Positions 21,396-56,670 of a DNA stretch of 64,000 nt are shown in pieces (the stretch's first letter is position 1; each line of letters starts with the position of its first letter). A program made the translations under genes and the position numbers. The notes below the pieces were generated by a model, which had not been told where the DNA came from, ran no database searches, and saw nothing but the letters and a program-made list of their open reading frames with translations. The stretch comes from Planctomycetota bacterium (GTDB lineage: Bacteria > Planctomycetota > JAJSAM01 > JAJVHW01): NCBI GenBank assembly GCA_965248445.1, contig CBDFJG010000004.1, positions 1,760,001 to 1,824,000 on the forward strand. The letters are read 5' to 3'.

Positions 21396-23642
21396 ATGCG
21401 ACTCCTCTCCCTCGCCGCTCTCGCCGTGGTCGGTGCCGTCGCACCTGCCGCCCTCGCCCAGGACACGGCTCCGCGGCACAGGCCGCTGGTCGAACTGTTC
21501 ACCTCACAGGGTTGAAGCAGCTGCCCGAAAGCCGACGAGTTCGTCGGCGAGTTGACGACGCCCGAGTTCCTCGCCGGTGCCACCGTCATCACCTGGCACG
21601 TGGACTACTGGGACTACCTGGGCTACGAGGATCCCTACGGCAAGTCAGAGCACACGCGGCGACAGCAGCTGTACCGAAAGCACCGCGCACCGAAGCACTT
21701 CGGTACACCACAGATCGCGATCGCGAACGAGTTCCTGCCCTGGGAGAAGGGCGCGTACGCGCGGGTTCCGGATCTCATCGCGGAGGCGAAGAAGAACGCG
21801 CCGTCGTTCAACCTCGTCGCGTCCATCGAGCGCGATGAACGAGGCGTCGTCGTCCACGCCGAACTGGATGCGATCGGCGAGCAGAGCACCGACGGTCTGG
21901 TGCTCCGCCCGGTACTGCTGCTGCGCGAGGCGAGGACCGACGTCACTGCAGGTGAGAACGAAGGAAAGACGCTGACGGAGTGGTTCGTGGCGCTGACAAC
22001 GGCCGTCCTGCCGGCGTCGCAAGCCGTCGACGGCGTGGCGAAGTTCCACCTGAAGGACACGACCGCGCACAGTGCGGAGCAGCTCGCAGTCGCCGTGCTT
22101 GTCGAGCGCGTCGACGACCTGCGCACGCTCGACTCGTGGTTCCTCGGCGTTGCTCCGCCGGCCGAGAGGCCCGACCGCGAGCACGACGACCAGCACATGG
22201 AGTCGGCGCTCGCCGCGGCCGGTGACAACGCCGTACAGCTCGAGCGGTTCCTCAAGCACTACGAAGACGACGAACAGAAGAGCACTGCGGCCCGCTGGCT
22301 CGTGGAGAACATGGAGGGCAAGGGCTACGTCGTCACCGAACTGCGCAACGCCAAGGGCGAGACGGTGCCGTTCGACACGCTCTCGTACAAGACGTACGCC
22401 GAATCGCTCTCGGCGATCGAGGCGCTCGAGAAGGAGCACGGCGAACTCGAGTTCGCGCGGGACCGGATCGTCGAGGACCTGGCTACAGTCACCGCGGAGT
22501 TCCTGATTCGCCGTACGGACCAGGCAATCGCAGCGTGGCGTGCGCAGCCGGCATCCCGGCGCGTCGACTTCGACACGTTCCTGAACCACGTCCTCCCCTA
22601 CCGCGGCAGCCAGGAGCCTCTGGACGACTGGATCGGCCCGCTGCGTGAGCGGACGGGTGAGATCGCCGCGGGACTGCCCCAGAACGCCGGGATCGACGAG
22701 CTCTACCGGGCGCTCAACAAGGACGTGAACTCCCGGGTGAAGTTCAACGAGCGCTTCTACCTGCACCCGACGGACCAGAGCTTCGGTGAGATGCTCGAGA
22801 GCGGCCAGGGCCGCTGCGAGGACATCACGAACATGATCACATACGCCGCGCGCAGCGCGGCGCTGGCGACGGCCGCGGACTACACGCCGTGGTGGGCGCA
22901 CCGCGACAACAACCACGCCTGGAACGTGCTCCTCGACCAGAACGGTGTGGGCGCCGACAAGGCGCAGTCCCATGCGGCGAAGATCTACCGCAAGACGTTC
23001 GCCGTCCAGCGGAACGCGCTCGCGTTCCAGCTACCTGAGGGCCGCGAGGCAGCAAACCGGTTCATGGCGAGCACGACGTACGTGGACGTCACCGACCAGT
23101 ACCGCGAGACCAAAGATGTCGGCACGTGGATCATCTCACCCGATCATGCCCTCGAGCGCTTCGCGTACCTCTGCGTGTTCAACGGCGGCGAGTGGAAGGC
23201 GATCCAGTGGGCGCCGGTCCACTACGCGTACGCGAAGTTCGCAAAGATGGGCCGCGACATCCTGTACCTGCCGGCGCTGCACGACGGCGACCGGCTGATC
23301 CCAGCGAACGCACCGCTCACCGTCGACGACGAAGGCGAGCGTTGGCCGCTGGCGGGCAAGGACCCCGGCACGAGCTTGCTCGCTACCTCCACCAAGCCGA
23401 GGCAGAAGAGCGCGGAGACCGGCGAGGTCACGCCCATCTCGCACCTGACCGCGGGCACCGAGTACACGCTGAAGCGGTGGGCTGACGGGGACTGGGTCGA
23501 CGTCGCGACGGTCATCGCCGGCAAGGAACCGCTGCGTTTCGACGACCTGCCGGAGGACGCGCTCTACTGGCTGGTGGCCAAGGACTCACGCAGGCTCGAG
23601 CGCCCGTTCACGATCCAGGAAGGCCGCCAGCGCTTCTGGTAG
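21396..23642 (+). CDS. Probable selenoprotein: signal peptide + DUF1223 thioredoxin-like domain (UxxC) + transglutaminase-like domain
   Basis: MRLLSLAALAVVGAVAPAALAQD...LVELFTSQG[TGA 21513-21515]SSCPKAD is in frame with the 21552 ORF; HVDYWDYLGYEDPY and GENEG motifs; later GRCED...NHAWN. Confidence 0.8.
21531..21548 (+). promoter_or_regulatory. SECIS-like hairpin
   Basis: GCCGACG-AGTT-CGTCGGC, with the loop 22 nt after the in-frame UGA. Confidence 0.65.
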
Positions 23643-46913: not shown

Positions 46914-47510
46914 TCACTCAGACGGGACGAGCCGGAGCACTGCGCTGTTGATGCAGTACCGCAGCCCCGTAGGCTCGGGACCGTCCTCGAAGACGTGCCC
47001 CAGATGGCCGTCACACTTGCTGCAGACGATCTCGGTGCGGACCATCCCGGAGCTGCGGTCTGCGTGCTCGACGATGGAGGAGTCGCTGGCAGGCTTGTAG
47101 AAGGCCGGCCACCCACAACCCGAGTCGTACTTGTGGTCCGAGAGGAACAGAGCCTGACCGCAGCCCACGCACTCGTACGTGCCGGGCGTGAACACCTTGT
47201 CGTACTGGCCGGTCCAGGCCCGTTCGGTGCCCTTCTCCCGCAGCACGTAGAACTGGTCCGGCGAGAGGATGTCCCGCCACTGCTCGTTCGTCTTGGTCAC
47301 CTTCGCCTCCTCCCGGCCGTCCTGATTCGGCGCGGACTCCGAGACCGGAGTCGCGGCGCCCGGTCCCGCATTCGACTCAACTGAACTCGGATCCGCCGAT
47401 GGTGCTGTCCCGGTCTCAGGGGGCCGGCCTGTGGGTGGACCGCCCCCCGGCGACGGAGCGCATGCAGCGGCGAGCAGGGCCAGACAGGCGAGCAGGATGA
47501 CTGGACGCAT
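46914..47510 (-). CDS. msrB: Peptide-methionine (R)-S-oxide reductase MsrB with lipoprotein signal
   Basis: GTERAW, SGCGWPAF, HLGHVF, RYCINS; N-terminal LAAA-C lipobox and Pro/Ser linker. Confidence 0.93.
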   Translation of the reverse strand: MRPVILLACLALLAAACAPSPGGGPPTGRPPETGTAPSADPSSVESNAGPGAATPVSESAPNQDGREEAKVTKTNEQWRDILSPDQFYVLREKGTERAWTGQYDKVFTPGTYECVGCGQALFLSDHKYDSGCGWPAFYKPASDSSIVEHADRSSGMVRTEIVCSKCDGHLGHVFEDGPEPTGLRYCINSAVLRLVPSE

Positions 47511-47663
47511 GGCGACAGATTACCTCAGACCACGTCGGTCTCACCCCGGTGCAAGCGCCGCGCAGCCTCCCAAGGAACCACTTGCGGGCGCCAGGCATTC
47601 CGTTCCCGTTACTCACGCGAATTGAACGGAATGCCAGCCCCCAACTCCCGCCACAATCCCCCC

Positions 47664-49778
47664 ATGGCCAAGCGCACGCCCCCCAAGACACGCCGGGGGA
47701 AGTCCACGCGTGCGAAGCAGAAGGCCGCCTTTGCCGCCGAGTCGTACATCAATCGCGAATTGTCGATGCTCGAGTTCAACCGGCGTGTGCTCGCGCAGGC
47801 CAGGGACGAGTCGGTCCCCCTCCTCGAGCGGCTGCGGTTCCTGACCATCTGCAGCACCAACCTCGACGAGTTCTTCGAGATCCGCGTCTCGGGCCTCAAG
47901 CAGCAGGAGCAGTACGGCGTCAAGAGCAGGCGCTTCGACGGCCTGACACCGCTGGAGTCGCTGGCACGGATCTCCAAGACCGCGCACGGACTCGTCGAGC
48001 AGCAGTACGCGCTCCTGAACGACGTGCTCATTCCCGGGCTCGCGGCCGAGGGCACGCGGGTCCTGCGGAGGGACGCATGGAGCGAGCGTGCGAAGCGGTT
48101 CGTGAAGACGTTCTTCCAGCGTGAGGTCATGCCCGTGCTCACGCCGATCGCGCTCGACCCGGCGCATCCCTTTCCGAGGGTGCTCAACAAGAGCCTGAAC
48201 TTCATCGTGAGCGTCGAGGGCACCGACGCGTTCGGGCGCGACGTCGGTCTGGCAGTGGTGCAGGTACCGCGGGCGCTGCCGCGAATGATCGCCCTGCCGA
48301 GCGGGCGGCGCGGCCGCCACGACTTCGTGATGCTCTCGTCCGTGATTCACGCGCACGTGCGCGAGCTGTTCCCCGGCATGAAGGTGCGCGGGTGCTTCCA
48401 GTTCCGGGTCACCCGCAACAGCGACCTGTGGGTGGACGAGGAAGAGGTCGAGAACCTGCTGCAGGCGCTCAAGGGCCAGCTGCCGAGCCGGCGTTACGGC
48501 GCGGCGGTCCGCCTCGAGGTCGCCGACACCTGTCCCGAAGAAGCCGCTGACCACCTGCTCCAGCAACTGCAGCTGACGCCGGACGATCTCTACCGCGTCA
48601 ACGGACCCGTCAACCTGTACCGGCTCGCGCAGTTGCACGATCTCCTAGAGCGGCCGGACCTCAAGTACCCGCCGTTCGTCGCGGGACTGCCCCGACGCCT
48701 GACGCTCGGGCGCGACATCTTCACGGTTCTGCGCATCCGCGACGTCCTGGTGCACCACCCCTACGAGTCGTTCGCCCCGGTGCTCGAGCTGATTCGTTCC
48801 GCGGCCACCGATCCCAAGGTCCTGGCGATCAAGGTCACGCTCTACCGCACACAGAGCGGATCCCCGCTCGTCGAGGCGCTCGTCGAAGCCGCGCGCAAGG
48901 GCAAGGAGGTCACGGTCCTCGTCGAACTGCGCGCCCGATTCGACGAGGCCGCGAACATCGACCTGGCAACTCGGCTCGAGGAAGTCGGCGCCAACGTCGT
49001 GTATGGAATCGTCGGTTACAAGACGCACTGCAAGATGCTGATGGTCGTTCGCCGCGAGGAGCAGCGCCTGCGGCGCTACGTCCACCTCGGGACGGGGAAC
49101 TACCACACCGGGACGGTGCGCGCGTACACGGACTTCGGCCTCCTGAGCGCGGACCTGCGGCTCGGCGAGGACGTGCACCGGCTGTTCATGCAACTCACGG
49201 GCCTTGGCAAGGTGCACAAGCTGAAGAAGCTCCTGCAGGCACCGTTCACGCTGTTCGAGACGCTGCTGCGGCTCATCGCCGACGAGCGCGACGCCGCCCT
49301 GGCCGGCAAGCCCGCGCGGATCGTCGCCAAGATGAACTCGCTGTCGGAGAGGGACATCATCGACGCGCTGTATGCAGCGTCGCAGGCGGGCGTGAAGATC
49401 GACCTGATCGTGCGCGGCATCTGCTGCCTGCGTCCCGGCGTGCCCGGGCTCTCGGAGAACATCCGCGTCCGCTCGATCGTCGGGCGGTTCCTCGAGCACA
49501 CACGGATCTTCTCGTTCCACGCCGGCGGCGAGGAGCTCGTGTACATGTCGAGCGCGGACTGGATGTCGCGCAACTTGCACCGGCGCGTCGAGACCTGCTT
49601 CCCCGTCCTCGACAAGGCCGCCAAAGCACGCGTCGTCGACGAGGGCCTCAAGACCTACCTCTCCGACAACACGCAGGCGTGGTTGCTCCAGTCGGACGGC
49701 CGCTACCGCCGAGCGAAGCCGGGCAAGTCCGCTCCGGTCGCCGCGCAGACGACGCTGCTCCAGCGCCTCGCCGAGTGA
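47664..49778 (+). CDS. ppk1: Polyphosphate kinase 1
   Basis: NRELSMLEFN, NLDEFFEIRV, HHPYESF, ARFDE, GRFLEH, SADWMSRN. Confidence 0.97.
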   Translation: MAKRTPPKTRRGKSTRAKQKAAFAAESYINRELSMLEFNRRVLAQARDESVPLLERLRFLTICSTNLDEFFEIRVSGLKQQEQYGVKSRRFDGLTPLESLARISKTAHGLVEQQYALLNDVLIPGLAAEGTRVLRRDAWSERAKRFVKTFFQREVMPVLTPIALDPAHPFPRVLNKSLNFIVSVEGTDAFGRDVGLAVVQVPRALPRMIALPSGRRGRHDFVMLSSVIHAHVRELFPGMKVRGCFQFRVTRNSDLWVDEEEVENLLQALKGQLPSRRYGAAVRLEVADTCPEEAADHLLQQLQLTPDDLYRVNGPVNLYRLAQLHDLLERPDLKYPPFVAGLPRRLTLGRDIFTVLRIRDVLVHHPYESFAPVLELIRSAATDPKVLAIKVTLYRTQSGSPLVEALVEAARKGKEVTVLVELRARFDEAANIDLATRLEEVGANVVYGIVGYKTHCKMLMVVRREEQRLRRYVHLGTGNYHTGTVRAYTDFGLLSADLRLGEDVHRLFMQLTGLGKVHKLKKLLQAPFTLFETLLRLIADERDAALAGKPARIVAKMNSLSERDIIDALYAASQAGVKIDLIVRGICCLRPGVPGLSENIRVRSIVGRFLEHTRIFSFHAGGEELVYMSSADWMSRNLHRRVETCFPVLDKAAKARVVDEGLKTYLSDNTQAWLLQSDGRYRRAKPGKSAPVAAQTTLLQRLAE

Positions 49779-49879
49779 CCTCAGAGCGCGTCAACGTCTC
49801 GGGTGTGTCCCCGCTGCCGGTTCGTACGTCCTGATGCGGGGGCACGTGTCGCGCCCGTATACTCGCCGCGGAGAAGCTG

Positions 49880-50407
49880 ATGCACAGCACGGACACCGAG
49901 AAGTTCACGCGAGCCGACTACGCGCAGCTGCCGGAGGGATTCCCGGCATACCTGCTCGACGGTCAACTGGTTCGCGAGCCGGCTCCGACGTTCGGACACC
50001 AGGCGGTCGTCGGCGAATTGCATCTGCGTCTTGAGGCCGTCGCGCGGCACCGCGTACTGATGTCGCCGATGGACGTCGTCATCGATGACCTGAACGTGCT
50101 GCAACCGGATCTGCTCGTCTTTCGCGAAGGCGTTCGCGCGGGTCTCAGCACGCCGCCCGAGGAGATCCCGATCCTCGTGGTGGAGGTGTTGTCCCCCTCG
50201 ACGGCTCGCCGCGACCGGCGGGCGAAGACGGCGATCTACTTGCGGGCGGGCATCGCCGAGGTGTGGCTCGTGGATCCCGTGTCACGGACGATCGACGTTG
50301 TGACGCCGGTGGGCAAACGCCATCACGAGGCGGACGAAGCCGCCGTGTCGGCCGCCGTCCCAGGGCTCCGACTGATCTGGTCCGACATCGAGCGCGCACG
50401 CGCCTGA
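49880..50407 (+). CDS. Uma2 (DUF820) family endonuclease
   Basis: QPDLLV, VVEVLSPST, K..IY.RAGIAEVWLVDP. Confidence 0.88.
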   Translation: MHSTDTEKFTRADYAQLPEGFPAYLLDGQLVREPAPTFGHQAVVGELHLRLEAVARHRVLMSPMDVVIDDLNVLQPDLLVFREGVRAGLSTPPEEIPILVVEVLSPSTARRDRRAKTAIYLRAGIAEVWLVDPVSRTIDVVTPVGKRHHEADEAAVSAAVPGLRLIWSDIERARA

Positions 50408-50411
50408 GTCT

Positions 50412-51947
50412 TCAGTCCAGACGAAGCTCCACACCGACCTCCGCCAGGCGCTTGGACTCCTCCTGCAGGTCATAGCGAGTCAGCGGGTGGTCGTCGAGCC
50501 AGTCGTCCGTGAACCGGATCATGAGCCCGTCCGCGAACCCCTCGACGTTCGCCGGAAGCGGCGGACGCGGATTGCGGCCGCGGTTGAGGCGCCGGCCGAT
50601 CCGGAGCAGAACGCACAGCAGCAGCGCCCGCCGCGCGCGGTCGTCGGGCAGCGACGCGAAGAGCTCCGGCAGGACCTTGCGCCGGTGGCCTCGAACGATG
50701 GCGGCAAGCATGCGCTGGTCGCCTCGGGAGAACCCCGGGAGATCCGCGTTCTCGACGAGGTACGCAGAGTGCCGCTGGTACCCCGCCCGCGCTACGGACA
50801 TCCCCGCTTCGTGAAGACTCGCGCTCCATGTGAGGAGACGCCGGTCGATCGGGTCGTCGAGGAACCACGCGCGCCGCACGTGTTCGAACAGCGCGAGCGA
50901 CGTCCGCTCGACCCGTCGCGCGTGCTCCAGGTCGACGCCGCATCGCGCGGCGAGGTCCGACACCGAGCCGTCCCGCGAATCCTCGGTACGAGGATCGCCG
51001 AGCAAGCCGAGCACGATTCCCTCGCGGATGGCGGCCTCCGACGTTTCCATCACATCGAGATCGAACGCATCGAAGACGGCCTGCAGGATGGCGACTCCGC
51101 CCGCGACCACTGGCGCACGTGTGTCGGACAGACCGTCGATCTCGAGGTGTTGGTCGTCCTTCGCAGATTGGATCGACTTGCGTACCGCGCGCAGACCGTC
51201 GTGGGTCACAGGTCCCTTCGACCAGTCGTTTGCGACGCACATGGAGCGGATCGCGAGGTTCGTGCCCGATGAGCCGATGGCCACGTTCCAGCCGAGATCC
51301 GCGAACGGACGCACCAGGGGCTCGAGTTCGAGGCGCGCAGCCAGGCGCGCCTCGGACATCGCCGACTTGGACAATCTGCCGTCACCGAAGAAGCGCCGCG
51401 TGAACGAGACGCAGCCCATGTAGAGGCTTGCGCTCGCGAGCACGTCGTGACCCTCGCCGACGATGCACTCGGTGCTGCCTCCGCCGATGTCGATCACGAG
51501 CCGGCGTTCGGGGCCCTCGTCCGCGACGTGGGAGACGTCGTGGGCAACACCCCGGTAGATCAGCCGCGCCTCCTCGTCACCCGAGACGATCTCGATCGGG
51601 TGGCCGAGGATGGTCTCGCAGGAGGAGAGGAACTCGCCGTCGTCGTCCACCTGACGGAACGTATTCGTCCCGACCGCTCGGACGTCCTCGGGCGCGAACC
51701 CGCGCAGCCTCTGCGCGAACCGTCCGAGACAAGCCTCTGCACGCTGCGCCACCGTTGTTTGGATCCCTGTTTGGATCCCGCCGCCGGCAGTCAGCCCGGT
51801 GGCGAGCCGCACGCGCTCCCTGATCCTGTCCACGATCCGAAACGCGGCGCCCTGTCGCTCGGCGACGATCAGGTGGAAGCTGTTGGAGCCGAGGTCGACC
51901 GCCGCAACGGTGCGCTCCGTGTCCGCTTGGCCGCTCGAATTCGGCAC
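50412..51947 (-). CDS. ppx: Exopolyphosphatase Ppx/GppA
   Basis: DLGSNSFH, EEARLIY, DIGGGSTE, REG, HD-like LHEAG C-domain. Confidence 0.92.
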   Translation of the reverse strand: MPNSSGQADTERTVAAVDLGSNSFHLIVAERQGAAFRIVDRIRERVRLATGLTAGGGIQTGIQTTVAQRAEACLGRFAQRLRGFAPEDVRAVGTNTFRQVDDDGEFLSSCETILGHPIEIVSGDEEARLIYRGVAHDVSHVADEGPERRLVIDIGGGSTECIVGEGHDVLASASLYMGCVSFTRRFFGDGRLSKSAMSEARLAARLELEPLVRPFADLGWNVAIGSSGTNLAIRSMCVANDWSKGPVTHDGLRAVRKSIQSAKDDQHLEIDGLSDTRAPVVAGGVAILQAVFDAFDLDVMETSEAAIREGIVLGLLGDPRTEDSRDGSVSDLAARCGVDLEHARRVERTSLALFEHVRRAWFLDDPIDRRLLTWSASLHEAGMSVARAGYQRHSAYLVENADLPGFSRGDQRMLAAIVRGHRRKVLPELFASLPDDRARRALLLCVLLRIGRRLNRGRNPRPPLPANVEGFADGLMIRFTDDWLDDHPLTRYDLQEESKRLAEVGVELRLD

Positions 51948-52128
51948 GGACCCATTGTGGCCGTGGCTCCCCCATCCCGCGTGCACCCTCCGACCGGCGT
52001 ACCCGCCCGGGGCTATCCTCGTCAATCGGCGTGCGGGGCGGCACCGCCGGCACGTCCGCAGTTCGTCGTCAGGGCCAGGTCGTCGTCAGTGCCACTTCCT
52101 TTGACGGGCGCCGGCTCATGGAGGTCAC

Positions 52129-52401
52129 ATGTCCAGTCGCACTCTCAGCGTAGCGATCCTCTCGTTCTCACTCCTGGGCATGGCAGCGTGCACGAGCCCG
52201 CTAGCCGAGGGGAACAGGGTCCGCAAGGCCGACACGACGCGTGCCCCGGGCATCGTCTACAACGGCGGCGACGCGCAGGCCCCGCACGCGGGCGCCGGCG
52301 ATGCCGCCCCGGCGGCCACCGGCACCGACGGTAGCGCGGGAGGCAGCCGCAGCGCCGGTTCCGTGCGCGAGTACGTCGAGTCATTCCCGCAGTCCAAGTA
52401 A
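52129..52401 (+). CDS. Small hypothetical lipoprotein
   Basis: GGAGG RBS; LLGMAA-C lipobox. Confidence 0.6.
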   Translation: MSSRTLSVAILSFSLLGMAACTSPLAEGNRVRKADTTRAPGIVYNGGDAQAPHAGAGDAAPAATGTDGSAGGSRSAGSVREYVESFPQSK

Positions 52402-52435
52402 CCGCAGCCCTGCTGCTCGGCTCGCTCGGGAACCG

Positions 52436-52864
52436 TCAGATCAGAGCGCGCGCCGCGGCCACCACCGCGACGTAGCGAGCGGCCTTCCCCGTCGCCACGA
52501 GCACGAGGAACAGGCCGGTCGGTACGCGCAGCAGTCCCGCGGCGAACGTCAGCGGGTCACCCACCACCGGAAGCCACGCGAAGAGCAAGACCCAGCGGCC
52601 GCGCTTGCGCATGCAGCGCGCCGCCAGAACCAGCGCACGCCGCGACACCGGGAACCAGCGCCGGCGCCGCCAGCGTCGCGCCTCGCGGCCGAGCAGGTGG
52701 TTGAGCAGCGCACCGAGCGTGTTCCCCGCGGTGGCGACCACGACCAGAGGGACGACAGCGGCACCCTCGGCGGTGGCGAGCACGCCGAGGACGGCTTCGG
52801 ACGGCACCGGCAGGAGTGTGGCGGCGAGAAACGCGCTGCCGAACAGGGCAAGGAGTTCGCTCAC
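52436..52864 (-). CDS. YqaA/DedA-family membrane protein
   Basis: FLAATLLPVPSE, GNTLG, AWLPVVGDPLTFAAG, GKAARY. Confidence 0.88.
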   Translation of the reverse strand: MSELLALFGSAFLAATLLPVPSEAVLGVLATAEGAAVVPLVVVATAGNTLGALLNHLLGREARRWRRRRWFPVSRRALVLAARCMRKRGRWVLLFAWLPVVGDPLTFAAGLLRVPTGLFLVLVATGKAARYVAVVAAARALI

Positions 52865-52982
52865 GCCGGCATTCGATCACGAGACCGCCGTCACGCCGCC
52901 CCGGAACAATTCCGGCAGGCCGTCCGTTCAGGGGGCAGCCCCAGAAGGGCGACATGCACATCGTCCGGAGGTCTCGCTGTCG

Positions 52983-53384
52983 ATGAAGAACGCTCTGCTA
53001 CCCGCCGCTTTGCTGCCCGCCGTATTGGGGGCACTCCTGCTGGCGGCGTGCGATGCGCGCACCGAGACCGCCGCCGGAACCCCATCCGGACCGGTCGCCG
53101 TGCAGACCCCTACCAAGCAGGCCCCCGCGTCACCGGCAGCGGATCTCGTGACCGTCCGGCTCGCCGTCTCCGGCATGGGTTGAGGCGGCTCCGATTCCCC
53201 GCAGGTGCGGGGTGCTCTCTCCGACGTGCCGGGCGTCGTGTCGGCGCGCGTTAGCTGCGCGACGGGTCGTGCAGTCTGCAAGGTCGAGCCGGGCACCGAC
53301 CCGGAGACGCTCGCCGCCGCAGTGGACGAGGTCGGCTTCACGACCCGCCTCATCGGCACATCCACCGGAGCCGCTGGCCAGTAA
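52983..53384 (+). CDS. Probable selenoprotein: lipoprotein with heavy-metal-associated (HMA) domain
   Basis: LLAA-C lipobox; VRLAVSGMG[TGA 53181-53183]GGSDSPQVRGALSDVPGVVSARVS...LAAAVDEVGF reads through in frame to TAA at 53382-53384. Confidence 0.78.
53197..53212 (+). promoter_or_regulatory. SECIS-like hairpin
   Basis: CCCCGC-AGGT-GCGGGG, with the loop 19 nt after the UGA. Confidence 0.65.
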
Positions 53385-53431
53385 CTGACCCCGTCTGGGT
53401 GTCCGGAAGACCGGGCAGCCCGGCATCTTCA

Positions 53432-53460
53432 CGGAGGCCGCCCCGCCAGGGCGGCCTCCG
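53432..53460. terminator. Hairpin between convergent genes (probable terminator)
   Basis: CGGAGGCCGCCC-CGCCA-GGGCGGCCTCCG perfect 12-bp stem. Confidence 0.65.
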
Positions 53461-53469
53461 CCTATTTGC

Positions 53470-54489
53470 CTATTTGGCGAGCCAGGCGCCCACGCCGTCC
53501 GGCGGTGCAGGGAGCACGAGCGGAACGCAGTCCCGCGGTCGCGAGCCGTTCTCGTCGCCGAGATGGAGCGACATGCCCGGAGCGCCGAGACGGTCGACCG
53601 CGGCCCGCGCGATCCGGCCGAACGTCACGCGAGCGTTGATCTCGCCAACCGGGTGGAGCTGCAACGACCCCGCCGCGTCGCGATGCCGATACGAGTCGAC
53701 GCCGAATGGTCCTGAGTAGCCGAGACCCAGCAGCTTCTCGCCCACCCACGCCGCGCCGTCGAGCAGTACGGCGTGCGCCTGCGGATCGGATGGGAGCGGT
53801 TCGATCGCAGACACGGCGCCGCCGCCACGCAAGGTCTGCCGGTGGACCCCATCGATGCACACCCCGCCGGATTCGATGTGCGCCTCCACGCCGAACTCGG
53901 CCACGACGTCCATCCAGGGCTCGAAGACGAGAATGCCATGCGCAGCCACGAGCCGCTCGAATCGTGGGCGATCCTGATCGCGCAGTCGCAGACCGCTCCC
54001 GCGGAGCCGTGCGCGACCCGCCGTGCCGTGCGGCGCCTTGACTACCCAATGCCCGGTCGCCGATGCAGCCGCTCCGTCGGCGTCCAGGTGACGATGCAAC
54101 TCGCTCTCGTCTCGGATCGTCCGCGCGCCGGGCAGCGCACAACCGCGAGCTGTCGCCCATTCGAGTTGGGTCCGGCGATCGCCGGCACGCGCACTGGAAC
54201 GAACGCGGGTCAGATGAACCACCTCATCAGTGGCGCCCCATGCGACAGCCGGCTCGTCCGCCGATGCCGGAAGAGCACCGGACACGAACGACGCCCCGCA
54301 TCCGTCGAGTGCCGGCGCGATCCGGGCGGCGTCCACGGGTGCGCGCGTCCAGAGAGCATCCCCGGGTGCAGCCAGCACCGCCATCAGCGCGCCCAGTGCC
54401 GACAGACGCTCACGGAGCGGAGACTCGTGCGCCGGTAGGCCCGCCCATGCGCGCTCGCAGTCGAGATTGGCGATCAGGAGCGTCGCCAC
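53470..54489 (-). CDS. ATP-grasp-fold protein
   Basis: WVVKAPHGTAGR, FEPWM, GYSGPFGVD, EINARVTFG. Confidence 0.75.
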   Translation of the reverse strand: MATLLIANLDCERAWAGLPAHESPLRERLSALGALMAVLAAPGDALWTRAPVDAARIAPALDGCGASFVSGALPASADEPAVAWGATDEVVHLTRVRSSARAGDRRTQLEWATARGCALPGARTIRDESELHRHLDADGAAASATGHWVVKAPHGTAGRARLRGSGLRLRDQDRPRFERLVAAHGILVFEPWMDVVAEFGVEAHIESGGVCIDGVHRQTLRGGGAVSAIEPLPSDPQAHAVLLDGAAWVGEKLLGLGYSGPFGVDSYRHRDAAGSLQLHPVGEINARVTFGRIARAAVDRLGAPGMSLHLGDENGSRPRDCVPLVLPAPPDGVGAWLAK

Positions 54490-54497
54490 GGCGGCGT

Positions 54498-55307
54498 CTA
54501 CCCGCGGGGCGCGCCGCCCGGAGCGGTCGGGACCTCATCGGCCAGCCGCGCGATGAACTCCTCGTCCATGCCGGCAGCGACCCGCGCCTCGCGATCGAAC
54601 GTGCGTCCGCGGGCGCGGGACGGCCCATGCGGCGGTCGCACGCCGCCGACGAACGTGTCCCAGTCCGACGTCTGCGGATCCTTGAATGCGCGCATCCAAC
54701 GCCACGCGAAGCCGACGTGCCGCACTTCGTCGTCGTGCACGCGCTCGAGCACGCGCGCGGTCTCCTCGTCACCGGCCTCTCGCGCCGCGGCGATGTGCTC
54801 GACCGAGAAGTCGAGGTTGGCGTTCTCGAACGTCAGGCCCATGGTGCAGACGAACTCGAGAGGAGTATGCATGTCCTCCACCTTCCGCCAGAAGTGACCT
54901 GAGACGGGCAGGTCGCCGAACCGCAGAGCGAGCGAGTCCAGGCGACCCGTGTACAGCCGGCAGTGGCGCTGCTCGTCCGCCATGATCGCCGCGCAGCCCC
55001 GGCGGAACGCAGCCGGGGCCGCGGGGAACGCGAGGATCGCCCACGCGAAGATCTCCGCCGCCTGCAACTCGTGGTTGGCGAGCGCGTGCAGGATGCGCGC
55101 GCGCTGCGCCGGATCGTGCATCCCCTCGGGCGGAGGGACGCGCACGTCACCGCCCGGCAGGATATCGAGCAATGGCGGGCGCACGGGCTCGGAGTACCGG
55201 GTCGGCGGGCCGGGGTCCTGATCAGTGAAGTCGTTCGGCGGCGCCTCGAGCTTGCCCTCGAGCGTCGTCGCTTCGATCACCCCTGCCGCGAACGTCCGCA
55301 GTTCCAT
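54498..55307 (-). CDS. DUF455-family ferritin-like protein
   Basis: LHALANHELQA, DEQRH, FENANLD, DEVRHV. Confidence 0.85.
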   Translation of the reverse strand: MELRTFAAGVIEATTLEGKLEAPPNDFTDQDPGPPTRYSEPVRPPLLDILPGGDVRVPPPEGMHDPAQRARILHALANHELQAAEIFAWAILAFPAAPAAFRRGCAAIMADEQRHCRLYTGRLDSLALRFGDLPVSGHFWRKVEDMHTPLEFVCTMGLTFENANLDFSVEHIAAAREAGDEETARVLERVHDDEVRHVGFAWRWMRAFKDPQTSDWDTFVGGVRPPHGPSRARGRTFDREARVAAGMDEEFIARLADEVPTAPGGAPRG

Positions 55308-55362
55308 GGCGGAGAGGAGAACATGCCGTCCGCGCACCGCAGAGTCTCTACTGGGGGTGCGT

Positions 55363-56670
55363 TCAGGAGAGGACGTGACGCGCGGCGGCCTCGCTACGGA
55401 GCGTCTCCGCGAGCCGCGGGTAATACGCGTCGTCGAAACGCGACAGGTCATGCCCGCCGGCTGCCCAAGCCTGACCGCGACGCCACAACCGGACTCCGTG
55501 ATCGAGCGCCGCGGAGATGTCGTCTCCTGGTGGCGGCGCGTCCCGCGGGAGGAGGCGGCCTGCTGAGCCATAGTGGCACCAATGCCCGGCGGCGTTCGAG
55601 AGGTTGCGGCCCGAGACGGCGTATCGCAGGAAGCGGTCACGGGACAGACCGCCCCGCCCGCTGTCGCCACGCAACACGAGGTCCGCCCATGCATCCACGA
55701 ACGGACACCACACGCGCACCGACCGGAAAGGCTGATCCGTTGCGTTCAGGTAGAGCAAACGCCTGTCGCCGAGCAGCCGGCGTGAGTGACGGACCACGCG
55801 GTCGAGAGTCCGCAGGTCGTAGGCGACGCCATCGAGGTAGAGACCGTCGGGCGCGTACTCCTCGAGCACCCGCTCGATCTCGCGCAGCGGATCGCTCGCC
55901 CGGGTGTGCTGCGGACTGAGGTACAGAACGAGCTGCATTCCGGCTGCACGCACCCGCTGCGCGAGTTCGTCGTATCTCTCGCGATCCGCCGGCTCGTGAC
56001 GGCGGGTCCGCCAGCTCGCCCGACGGCCGGCGTAGCGACCGATGCGCGGCCGATCGGCCGGCGCGGCCGCGGCCCAGAAGTACGCGTGGAGCGCGAAGAT
56101 CCGGCAGTGGCGCGCTGCGCTGTCGATGACTTCCGGTCCCGGGTAAGCGGCGGCGGGAAACGGACGCGGCCGGCCCTCGTGTGCCAGAGGCTCGGCCATT
56201 CGCTGCGGCGAAGGAGGCCGTGGCGGGAAAAACGCCACCCACACCTCGTCGCCAGCGGTCGTTGTGCGCGGCCCCAGCGGATAGACACCGATGCCGCCAC
56301 GGCGGTCCAGAACGAGCCGGCTGCCACGTCGCCGCGCGCGGTACTCCGGCGGGAAGAGCGGCTCGACGCGTAGTTCCAACGGCTTCTCTGCCGAAAACTG
56401 CACCACGGAGTCCGGGCGCACCGTTGCGCGTACGTGTCCGAATCGCAGCTGCACCTCGTCGGTGTGGAGCTCGACGACGGGCGCCCCCGGCGCGGCGACA
56501 TGAACGCGCGCGAGTGGCCGGGAGTCCGGCAGGCGCGCGTCAACGTGCAGCACGCCGCTCCCGTCGAACCGCAGCACGGCGCCGGTAGTGGTGACCTCGA
56601 CGTCGGCGCCGCGGTGCGCAACGCGTTCCACGCGCATTCCCGGCCACGCGGGATCGGACGGCGCTACCAC
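55363..56670 (-). CDS. Hypothetical protein, possibly glycoside-hydrolase-like TIM barrel
   Basis: AAGMQLVLYLS, DGLYLDG; co-oriented and overlapping with the sugar-transferase gene. Confidence 0.5.
   Translation of the reverse strand: MVAPSDPAWPGMRVERVAHRGADVEVTTTGAVLRFDGSGVLHVDARLPDSRPLARVHVAAPGAPVVELHTDEVQLRFGHVRATVRPDSVVQFSAEKPLELRVEPLFPPEYRARRRGSRLVLDRRGGIGVYPLGPRTTTAGDEVWVAFFPPRPPSPQRMAEPLAHEGRPRPFPAAAYPGPEVIDSAARHCRIFALHAYFWAAAAPADRPRIGRYAGRRASWRTRRHEPADRERYDELAQRVRAAGMQLVLYLSPQHTRASDPLREIERVLEEYAPDGLYLDGVAYDLRTLDRVVRHSRRLLGDRRLLYLNATDQPFRSVRVWCPFVDAWADLVLRGDSGRGGLSRDRFLRYAVSGRNLSNAAGHWCHYGSAGRLLPRDAPPPGDDISAALDHGVRLWRRGQAWAAGGHDLSRFDDAYYPRLAETLRSEAAARHVLS

Follow-up and report, generated by a model that had tools for sequence, protein, structure and literature searches.

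The question raised by this locus is whether a short lipoprotein frame that appears in the public protein collection as a 66-residue stub ending at a TGA codon continues through that codon as a selenoprotein and, if it does, what a metal-binding fold with a single selenocysteine (Sec) and no intact CxxC pair might do. In the window, by which we mean the whole 64,000-nucleotide stretch of planctomycete DNA that was analysed, the frame begins on the forward strand with an ATG at 52983, 11 nt downstream of a Shine-Dalgarno-like GGAGG (52967..52971, +), reaches an in-frame TGA at 53181-53183, and then stays open for 66 codons to a TAA at 53382-53384. Read through, the gene (52983..53384, +) encodes 133 residues comprising a signal peptide, a lipobox, an Ala/Pro/Thr linker and an HMA domain. 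The signal peptide and lipobox occupy 52983..53051 (+), where residues 20-23, L-A-A-C, satisfy the lipobox pattern behind a hydrophobic stretch; Cys23 (53049-53051), the residue presumably lipidated, aligns with the lipobox Cys of relatives, among which the member in the closest related genome has a less regular VTVC. The TGA (53181..53183, +) follows LAVSGMG and occupies the position of the first Cys in the GMxC motif of HMA domains; the residue is numbered Sec67. A preliminary description, made from the letters alone, had proposed a lipoprotein anchor, Sec at this first Cys position and a frame resuming beyond the TGA as the remainder of an HMA domain, and each of these is borne out: by the aligned lipobox, by the alignments and the conserved TGA, and by a Pfam HMA match that spans the codon. 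It had also remarked on a strong hairpin behind the TAA, and there is indeed a perfect 11-bp GC hairpin (53433..53459, no strand assigned) between the frame and the convergent downstream gene; the RNA that contains it (53385-53470) has a z of -4.8, and it is a possible terminator lacking a T-run. A scan of the locus for promoters and terminators found no sigma-70 promoter and no T-run terminator.

The fold of the product is well supported. Residues 60-119 match Pfam PF00403 at 27.9 bits against a cut-off of 24.8, and AlphaFold, given an 83-row alignment and with Sec modelled as Cys, predicts the MerP/CopZ-type domain (53139..53360, +) in the order beta-alpha-beta-beta-alpha-beta with a pLDDT of 93.7; the post-UGA half modelled without an alignment was uninformative (pLDDT 68). 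The best structural matches are all HMA domains (Z 13.6-14.8 for the top four), including MerP 1osd at a TM of 0.87, a Z of 13.6 and an rmsd of 1.6 A over 71 residues, and the PDB entry names of the matched domains refer to Cu, Hg and Zn binding. The HMA assignment of the preliminary description can therefore be retained. In the predicted model helix 1 begins at Asp71 (GAT, 53193..53195, +), Cys92 (53256..53258, +) sits just past strand 2 in the beta2-beta3 hairpin, and Cys99 (53277..53279, +) lies within strand beta3 (model strand E44-49), where it is probably buried and structural.

The genome is equipped to decode the codon. With the assembly 92% complete, selA, selB, selD and tRNA-Sec were all found, each above its curated cut-off, and selD carries an in-frame TGA of its own. 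At the position in question the contigs of four sequencing runs carry TGA and not a Cys codon, with otherwise identical letters; all four come from one sample, which is possibly the source of the window itself. A genome-wide scan for codon bias and hairpins returned 110 rows, in which some 20 further candidate selenoproteins of thioredoxin, AhpD, deiodinase or DUF type were recognised by eye; the scan missed both the HMA gene and selD and is therefore incomplete. Several of these candidates carry unusual motifs (R-U-VP-U, R-U-DP-U, H-U-U-P, U-PSF and U-ENN), and from such a number and variety the organism looks selenoprotein-rich. Elsewhere in the window, from 21396-21911 and onward (+), a signal-peptide DUF1223 thioredoxin-like gene has a TGA at 21513 in the context SQG-U-SSC and, read through, matches Pfam PF06764 at 100.8 bits; it is probably what the preliminary description had counted as its first hidden selenoprotein. 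For the HMA gene, we see very little room for doubt that the UGA is read as Sec.

The hairpin just after the UGA is a more complicated matter. A SECIS-like element, CCCCGC-AGGT-GCGGGG, lies inside the frame at 53197..53212 (+), its loop 23-26 nt from the U of the UGA. The AGGU loop is one that we take to resemble that of the E. coli fdhF SECIS: like elements of that type, the hairpin lies in the open reading frame and has an AGGU loop with a G, some 23-26 nt beyond the UGA, but it differs in having a short stem (6 bp), in not being significant by itself against shuffled sequences and in having no Rfam match. No Rfam family reached its gathering score within 52800-53600; against dinucleotide shuffles the z of the hairpin ranges from -0.03 to -1.08, not above chance, and against synonymous shuffles it is -0.74, with G25 falling in a hairpin loop in 80% of the shuffles. 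To a large extent the encoded protein sequence itself imposes this hairpin. The hairpin reported by the preliminary description is thus present where it was placed, but on its own it does not rise above chance.

Across the family the picture differs. The stability of the RNA behind the UGA exceeds that of its synonymous shuffles (z below 0) in 142 of 151 Sec-coded domains, with a mean z of -1.43, against 23 of 37 Cys-coded domains, with a mean of -0.53 (Mann-Whitney p 9e-6, a value overstated because kin are not independent). An earlier set of loci gave the same result, with 119 of 126 stabler than their synonymous shuffles and a mean z of -1.44, this set including one chance match (L199) and having had two rows dropped beforehand; a control window 42 nt further downstream has a mean z of +0.17. 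G25 is not enriched in the loop (33 observed, 36 expected), because many members pair further downstream. A consensus of eight sequences retains a stem of four pairs; at one of these, two sequences have both bases altered and two lose the pairing. It is only at the level of the family that the SECIS signal reaches significance, and not for the window hairpin alone.

The family to which these counts refer is broad. Of the order's 17 genomes, 11 contain an HMA match with an internal TGA, and the pattern G-M-x-TGA with three-residue spacing is present in at least 119 stretches of GTDB genomes; Planctomycetota, Verrucomicrobiota, Myxococcota, Nitrospinota and Poribacteria are among the sources named in the matches listed (80 titles). 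A search of the phylum found some HMA match at E <= 1e-15 in 108 of 401 genomes, many of these being ordinary Cys domains. After a profile filter, and with four hits lacking a parsed motif set aside, the fetched loci contain 189 distinct HMA domains, with TGA at the Sec67 site in 152 and a Cys codon there in 37, in a sample that the search pattern biases towards TGA and three-residue spacing. The Sec-coded motifs are U-x3-C (111), U-x3-U (31), U-x2-C (3) and U-x3-D (3), with U-x3-R (2), U-x3-G (1) and U-x3-Y (1) rarer still, and the Cys-coded ones are C-x3-C (11) and C-x2-C (26). The frame beyond the UGA is open and conserved in relatives, with 152 domains coded by TGA. By a crude rule, a hydrophobic stretch lies upstream in 135 of 148 Sec members and a lipobox-like Cys comes next in 90 of these. 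The window gene shares the GMx-U motif, the three-residue spacing and the N-terminal export signal, but lacks the second Cys or Sec that the family places four residues after the first, having Asp71 there instead. C-x3-C spacing also occurs outside the family, in 117 of 471 background HMA domains belonging to 40 proteins among the matches listed.

Several members depart from this general plan. Some of those at L127, L140, L221, L106/L222 and L117/L213 follow a MerT-like membrane stretch and not a signal peptide, judged by eye; L092, L133, L185 and L235 encode tandem two-domain proteins with Sec in each HMA domain; and L044, L171, L149 and L180 are single-Sec variants without the second Cys (U-x3-R twice, U-x3-Y and U-x3-G). 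The domains of L207 and L223, from genomes G385 and G347, are nearly identical, yet one genome encodes Cys and the other Sec, marking a recent Sec/Cys switch, and selA is still present in the four checked genomes that have a C-x3-C copy (G003, G002, G057 and G205). At L194, whose contig bears the label Nitrosopumilus, the U-x3-C gene groups with bacterial members and is probably a binning contaminant, while Oceaniferula spumae (L132) is a cultured carrier of the U-x3-C form.

Within this family, the window gene belongs to a small variant clade. The preliminary description read its motif as UxxS, a register that alignment rules out: the position of the second Cys in U-G-G-S-D is Asp71 and not Ser70, so that the motif is U-x3-D. 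Relative to the PDB domains among the matches listed, the family profile has one extra residue in the metal loop. That the second Cys has been lost was correctly seen. Three such genes were found, in the window, in genome G005 (the closest relative, of the same family, whose locus is the same DNA as L094) and on a metagenome contig (L200). They make up only 3 of the 152 Sec-coded domains, hence our treatment of them as a variant clade, and they group together: a rapid 188-row tree unites them with an SH-aLRT of 97, and a more careful one, built from 38 selected rows after masking of the diagnostic columns, does so with support of 98/98. The three have 30-34 of 55 post-UGA residues in common and all keep the U, the Asp, Cys92 and Cys99; between pairs dS is 0.59-1.24 and dN 0.35-0.47, giving dN/dS of about 0.28, 0.65 and 0.71, only moderately below 1 in two of the three pairs.

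The two Cys residues singled out alongside the Sec by the preliminary description are not equally distinctive. Position 92 is Cys in all three U-x3-D genes and in none of 182 other domains, which mostly have Phe, Met, Tyr or Leu, whereas position 99, usually Val or Ile, is Cys in all three and also in 8 of the 182. Among the matches listed, only 2 of 471 background HMA domains have Cys at position 92, both in one protein (P0112) and both beside an intact CxxC. The U-x3-R members have His (L044) and Gly at this position. Since the three genes form one clade, the pairing of Asp71 with Cys92 represents a single event and not repeated covariation.

Other searches put this variant in context. When the alignment of the three genes was run with HMMER against cluster representatives, no further U-x3-D member was recognised in the best 150 matches, mainly multi-HMA proteins; a metagenome scan for non-Cys second positions gave two matches, one real (L200) and one due to chance (L199); and nine matches in a viral collection were all chance matches, none of them HMA. 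Word-indexed protein searches found no homologue, probably because public gene calls stop at the UGA, and this does not speak for absence. The window's genome has four HMA matches, with no U-x3-C copy among them; they include a C-x3-C lipoprotein (L023/L065, G000:C4:971071-971370, GLH-C-EDD-C) and a paralogue without Cys in its loop (L022/L076, G000:C2:496128-496421). G005 has U-x3-C, C-x3-C and Cys-free paralogues, the last (L077) reading N-PES-D. Loops without either Cys or Sec, as in L076 and L077, indicate that the motif can disappear entirely from HMA proteins here.

The gene neighbourhood offers one consistent association. A divergent yqaA-like gene for a DedA/VTT membrane protein (52436..52864, -) stands head-to-head with the HMA gene, as it does in each of the three U-x3-D loci, the window's included; at L094 a CDF cation pump lies beyond it and a CBS protein downstream. 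However, of the order's 17 genomes four yielded a yqaA gene, and in two of the four, G006 and G007, that gene has no HMA neighbour, facing the CBS gene directly in G007; the pairing may thus reflect an inherited order of genes. By tblastn no yqaA lies near other family members among 109 loci of at least 2 kb, where a P1B-ATPase was found once, MerR twice, selA once and a CDF pump in a single genome (two overlapping loci). The member at L127 is the one beside the P1B-ATPase, those at L140 and L221 are beside MerR, and a U-x3-C gene in a Verrucomicrobiaceae genome (L105:3692-5047) is divergent from selA. Among 136 neighbour ORFs, these being the nearest genes and most of them cut to 320 residues, only the P1B-ATPase, MerR, CDF, two VTT and selA genes are relevant. 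The wider family is mostly solitary and seldom found beside metal-handling genes. The window gene likewise stands outside any mer or cop operon, its neighbours being the yqaA-like gene, a weak BesA-ligase match and DUF455. The latter two genes are convergent on the HMA gene, and a similar-looking ligase-like gene, judged by eye, occurs downstream in L094; more widely, 46914-55694 of the window holds an MsrB with a lipoprotein-like leader, ppk1, Uma2 and ppx.

In proposing a function we need to explain why the first metal-binding Cys is Sec, why its partner is Asp and why a Cys has appeared in the hairpin. Our model, to which we would give an even chance, is that the protein is a lipid-tethered, periplasm-facing binder of soft metals that uses Sec67 and Cys92, possibly with Asp71, in place of the CxxC pair. 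SelB would read the hairpin 17-32 nt past the UGA so that Sec67 is inserted, and the protein would be lipidated at Cys23 and held on its flexible linker. The selenolate of Sec67 would then serve as the main ligand for a metal that we predict to be Cu(I), Ag(I) or Hg(II); Cys92 would be near enough to supply a second ligand in place of the lost partner Cys, and Asp71 might act as a third ligand or as a helix cap. Asp serves as a ligand in the N-domain of ZntA. The outcome would be metal buffering or hand-over in the cell envelope, perhaps together with the divergent YqaA. The proposed nearness of Sec67 and Cys92 rests on the packing of the residue at the hairpin position of Cys92 (Phe38 in MerP, Leu38 in Menkes), which we take to lie against the GMxC loop; a literature search found no paper on this beta2-beta3 hairpin residue. 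A disulfide between Cys92 and Cys99 was considered and appears unlikely, because the predicted secondary structure puts the two at opposite ends of the hairpin.

Retention of Cys92 throughout the U-x3-D clade fits a relocated ligand, as one event. Against the model stand the Cys at position 92 that accompanies an intact CxxC in P0112, the Gly of one U-x3-R member, the few metal-related neighbours of family genes, and the HMA paralogues that have neither Cys nor Sec in the loop. The same scarcity of metal-handling neighbours lends some credit to a different function, in which the protein is an envelope redox selenoprotein whose Sec67 forms a selenenylsulfide with Cys92 or with a partner thiol and whose metal binding is incidental. 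The genome does encode many thioredoxin-like candidate selenoproteins with UxxC, an oxidised MerP structure exists (to judge by the title of 1osd), and most uncharacterised selenoproteins are probably redox proteins according to section 7 of a recent review (PMC13188914). Nevertheless, we think such a role rather unlikely, given that the fold and the GMx-U context are those of metal-binding domains, that there is no conserved redox partner gene nearby, and that an Asp at the resolving position would suit a ligand or a helix cap better.

A soft-metal binder need not, however, recruit Cys92 at all. Sec67 could carry the chemistry by itself, assisted by Asp71 or joined to a partner protein through a bridging metal, leaving Cys92 and Cys99 as small hydrophobic residues of the core that became fixed in the clade; nearly all other members have Phe, Met, Tyr or Leu at 92 and Val or Ile at 99, and from an event that happened once, function cannot be told from hitch-hiking. 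We judge this unlikely because so rare a residue (absent from the 182 other domains and present in 2 of 471 background domains among the matches listed) has been kept in genes that differ at about 40% of their post-UGA positions, and because L044, which likewise lacks the second Cys, has His at position 92. We regard as very unlikely the suggestion that the HMA protein and the YqaA/DedA protein form an export or uptake pair for selenium or a metal, in which the selenol would deliver the substrate to the membrane protein or collect it there. Their head-to-head arrangement in all three loci, the one family member adjoining selA (L105) and the increased indium accumulation that follows loss of YqaA in Rhodanobacter, as given in the available text of PMC8679861, would all accord with it, but the three loci are one clade, in G006 and G007 no HMA gene adjoins yqaA, and there is no yqaA near other members among the 109 loci. 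Finally, that the TGA is a true stop, in a decaying or misassembled gene for a 66-residue lipoprotein stub, is suggested by the public entry, the lost second Cys and a window hairpin that is not significant alone, but is scarcely credible when the same TGA and an open, conserved frame recur in two divergent clade members (dS 0.6-1.2), TGA is found in 152 family domains, the contigs of four runs from one sample agree and the Sec machinery is complete.

Our preferred reading, of a tethered soft-metal binder, is of interest since a redox role is assumed for most bacterial selenoproteins and those with an HMA fold in the catalogues consulted are predictions. The family provides a natural series on a single 70-residue fold, from C-x3-C through U-x3-C and U-x3-U to U-x3-D with a relocated Cys and finally Cys-free forms, several of which occur together in one genome, and the contribution of selenium to Cu, Ag or Hg binding in an oxidising periplasm thereby becomes directly testable. 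The window gene, and probably other members too, is cut at the UGA in public records, so that counts of marine and soil selenoproteomes may miss a common family. At its most ambitious, the argument would be that exported HMA selenoproteins of the U-x3-C and U-x3-U types make up a large family so far absent from catalogues, with more than 140 domains from Planctomycetota, Verrucomicrobiota, Myxococcota, Nitrospinota, Poribacteria and other groups, and that one planctomycete clade of this family has shifted its second ligand out of helix 1 and into the beta2-beta3 hairpin, creating on the fold of the classic copper chaperones a new Se/S/O metal site (Sec67, Cys92 and Asp71) that works with DedA/YqaA as an envelope metal-handling pair; taken as a whole, we offer this only tentatively, as doubtful.

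The preliminary description overstated the novelty of the protein, in that HMA-fold selenoproteins are already catalogued, as NF041115, NF045683 and the UxxC domain of P1B-ATPases. The particular motifs are less well represented. The 119-family table of the 2026 review, in its available text (PMC13188914), has no HMA entry with U-x3-C, U-x3-U or U-x3-D, and the accessible portions of PMC1976440, PMC2398784 with its supplement, PMC5322559, PMC13326102, PMC12013277 and bioRxiv 10.1101/2022.07.06.499078 do not describe the family. We found no description of family or variant in the literature, although BSepDB, deep-Sep, Haft and Tolstoy 2025 and the NCBI family descriptions could list members. 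A 'MerP' selenoprotein entry in the accessible text of the 2008 GOS survey was considered as a precursor, but it is a different sequence that does not look like HMA, and is thus not an earlier report of the family.

Among known systems, the closest is NF041115 (UxxU_metal_bind), another small HMA-like selenoprotein and the best selenoprotein model match of the window protein (E 2.8e-9); 27 of the 83 family members in the alignment match it as well, at E <= 1e-12. Its cut-off is 95 bits, the window protein scores 37 and the best of the 83 members 86 (E 1.4e-24), so that neither is a member by score; furthermore, its motif is UxxU with two Sec, going by the available text of PMC13188914, where the window protein has U-x3-D, one Sec and the additional Cys92. 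NF045683, a MerT/CopZ fusion-like heavy metal transport selenoprotein, also contains a CopZ-like domain, and two U-x3-U members score 44.9 bits against it, but, compared by its library row, it is a fusion model of 235 positions with a cut-off of 375; the 133-residue window protein has no MerT part and gives no match to it at E <= 0.1. The UxxC domain of P1B-ATPases resembles the window protein in having Sec at the first Cys, in the context GMT-U (a GOS example in the accessible part of the PMC2398784 supplement, and the table of PMC13188914), but it is a domain of an ATPase with two-residue spacing that keeps its second Cys, whereas the window protein is a stand-alone lipoprotein. The curated chaperone models fit poorly, with 20.7 bits for TIGR02052 (cut-off 92.55) and 40.9 for NF047957 (cut-off 85). 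MerP (TIGR02052; PDB 1afi and 1osd) and CopZ/Atx1 (PF00403) are alike in fold, and MerP is also an exported single-domain protein, yet the intact GMxCxxC site with which MerP and CopZ bind metal through two thiols is replaced in the window protein by GMG-U-GGS-D, and in place of two Cys encoded within a mer or cop operon we find Sec, Asp and a lipid anchor in a gene that stands outside any such operon.
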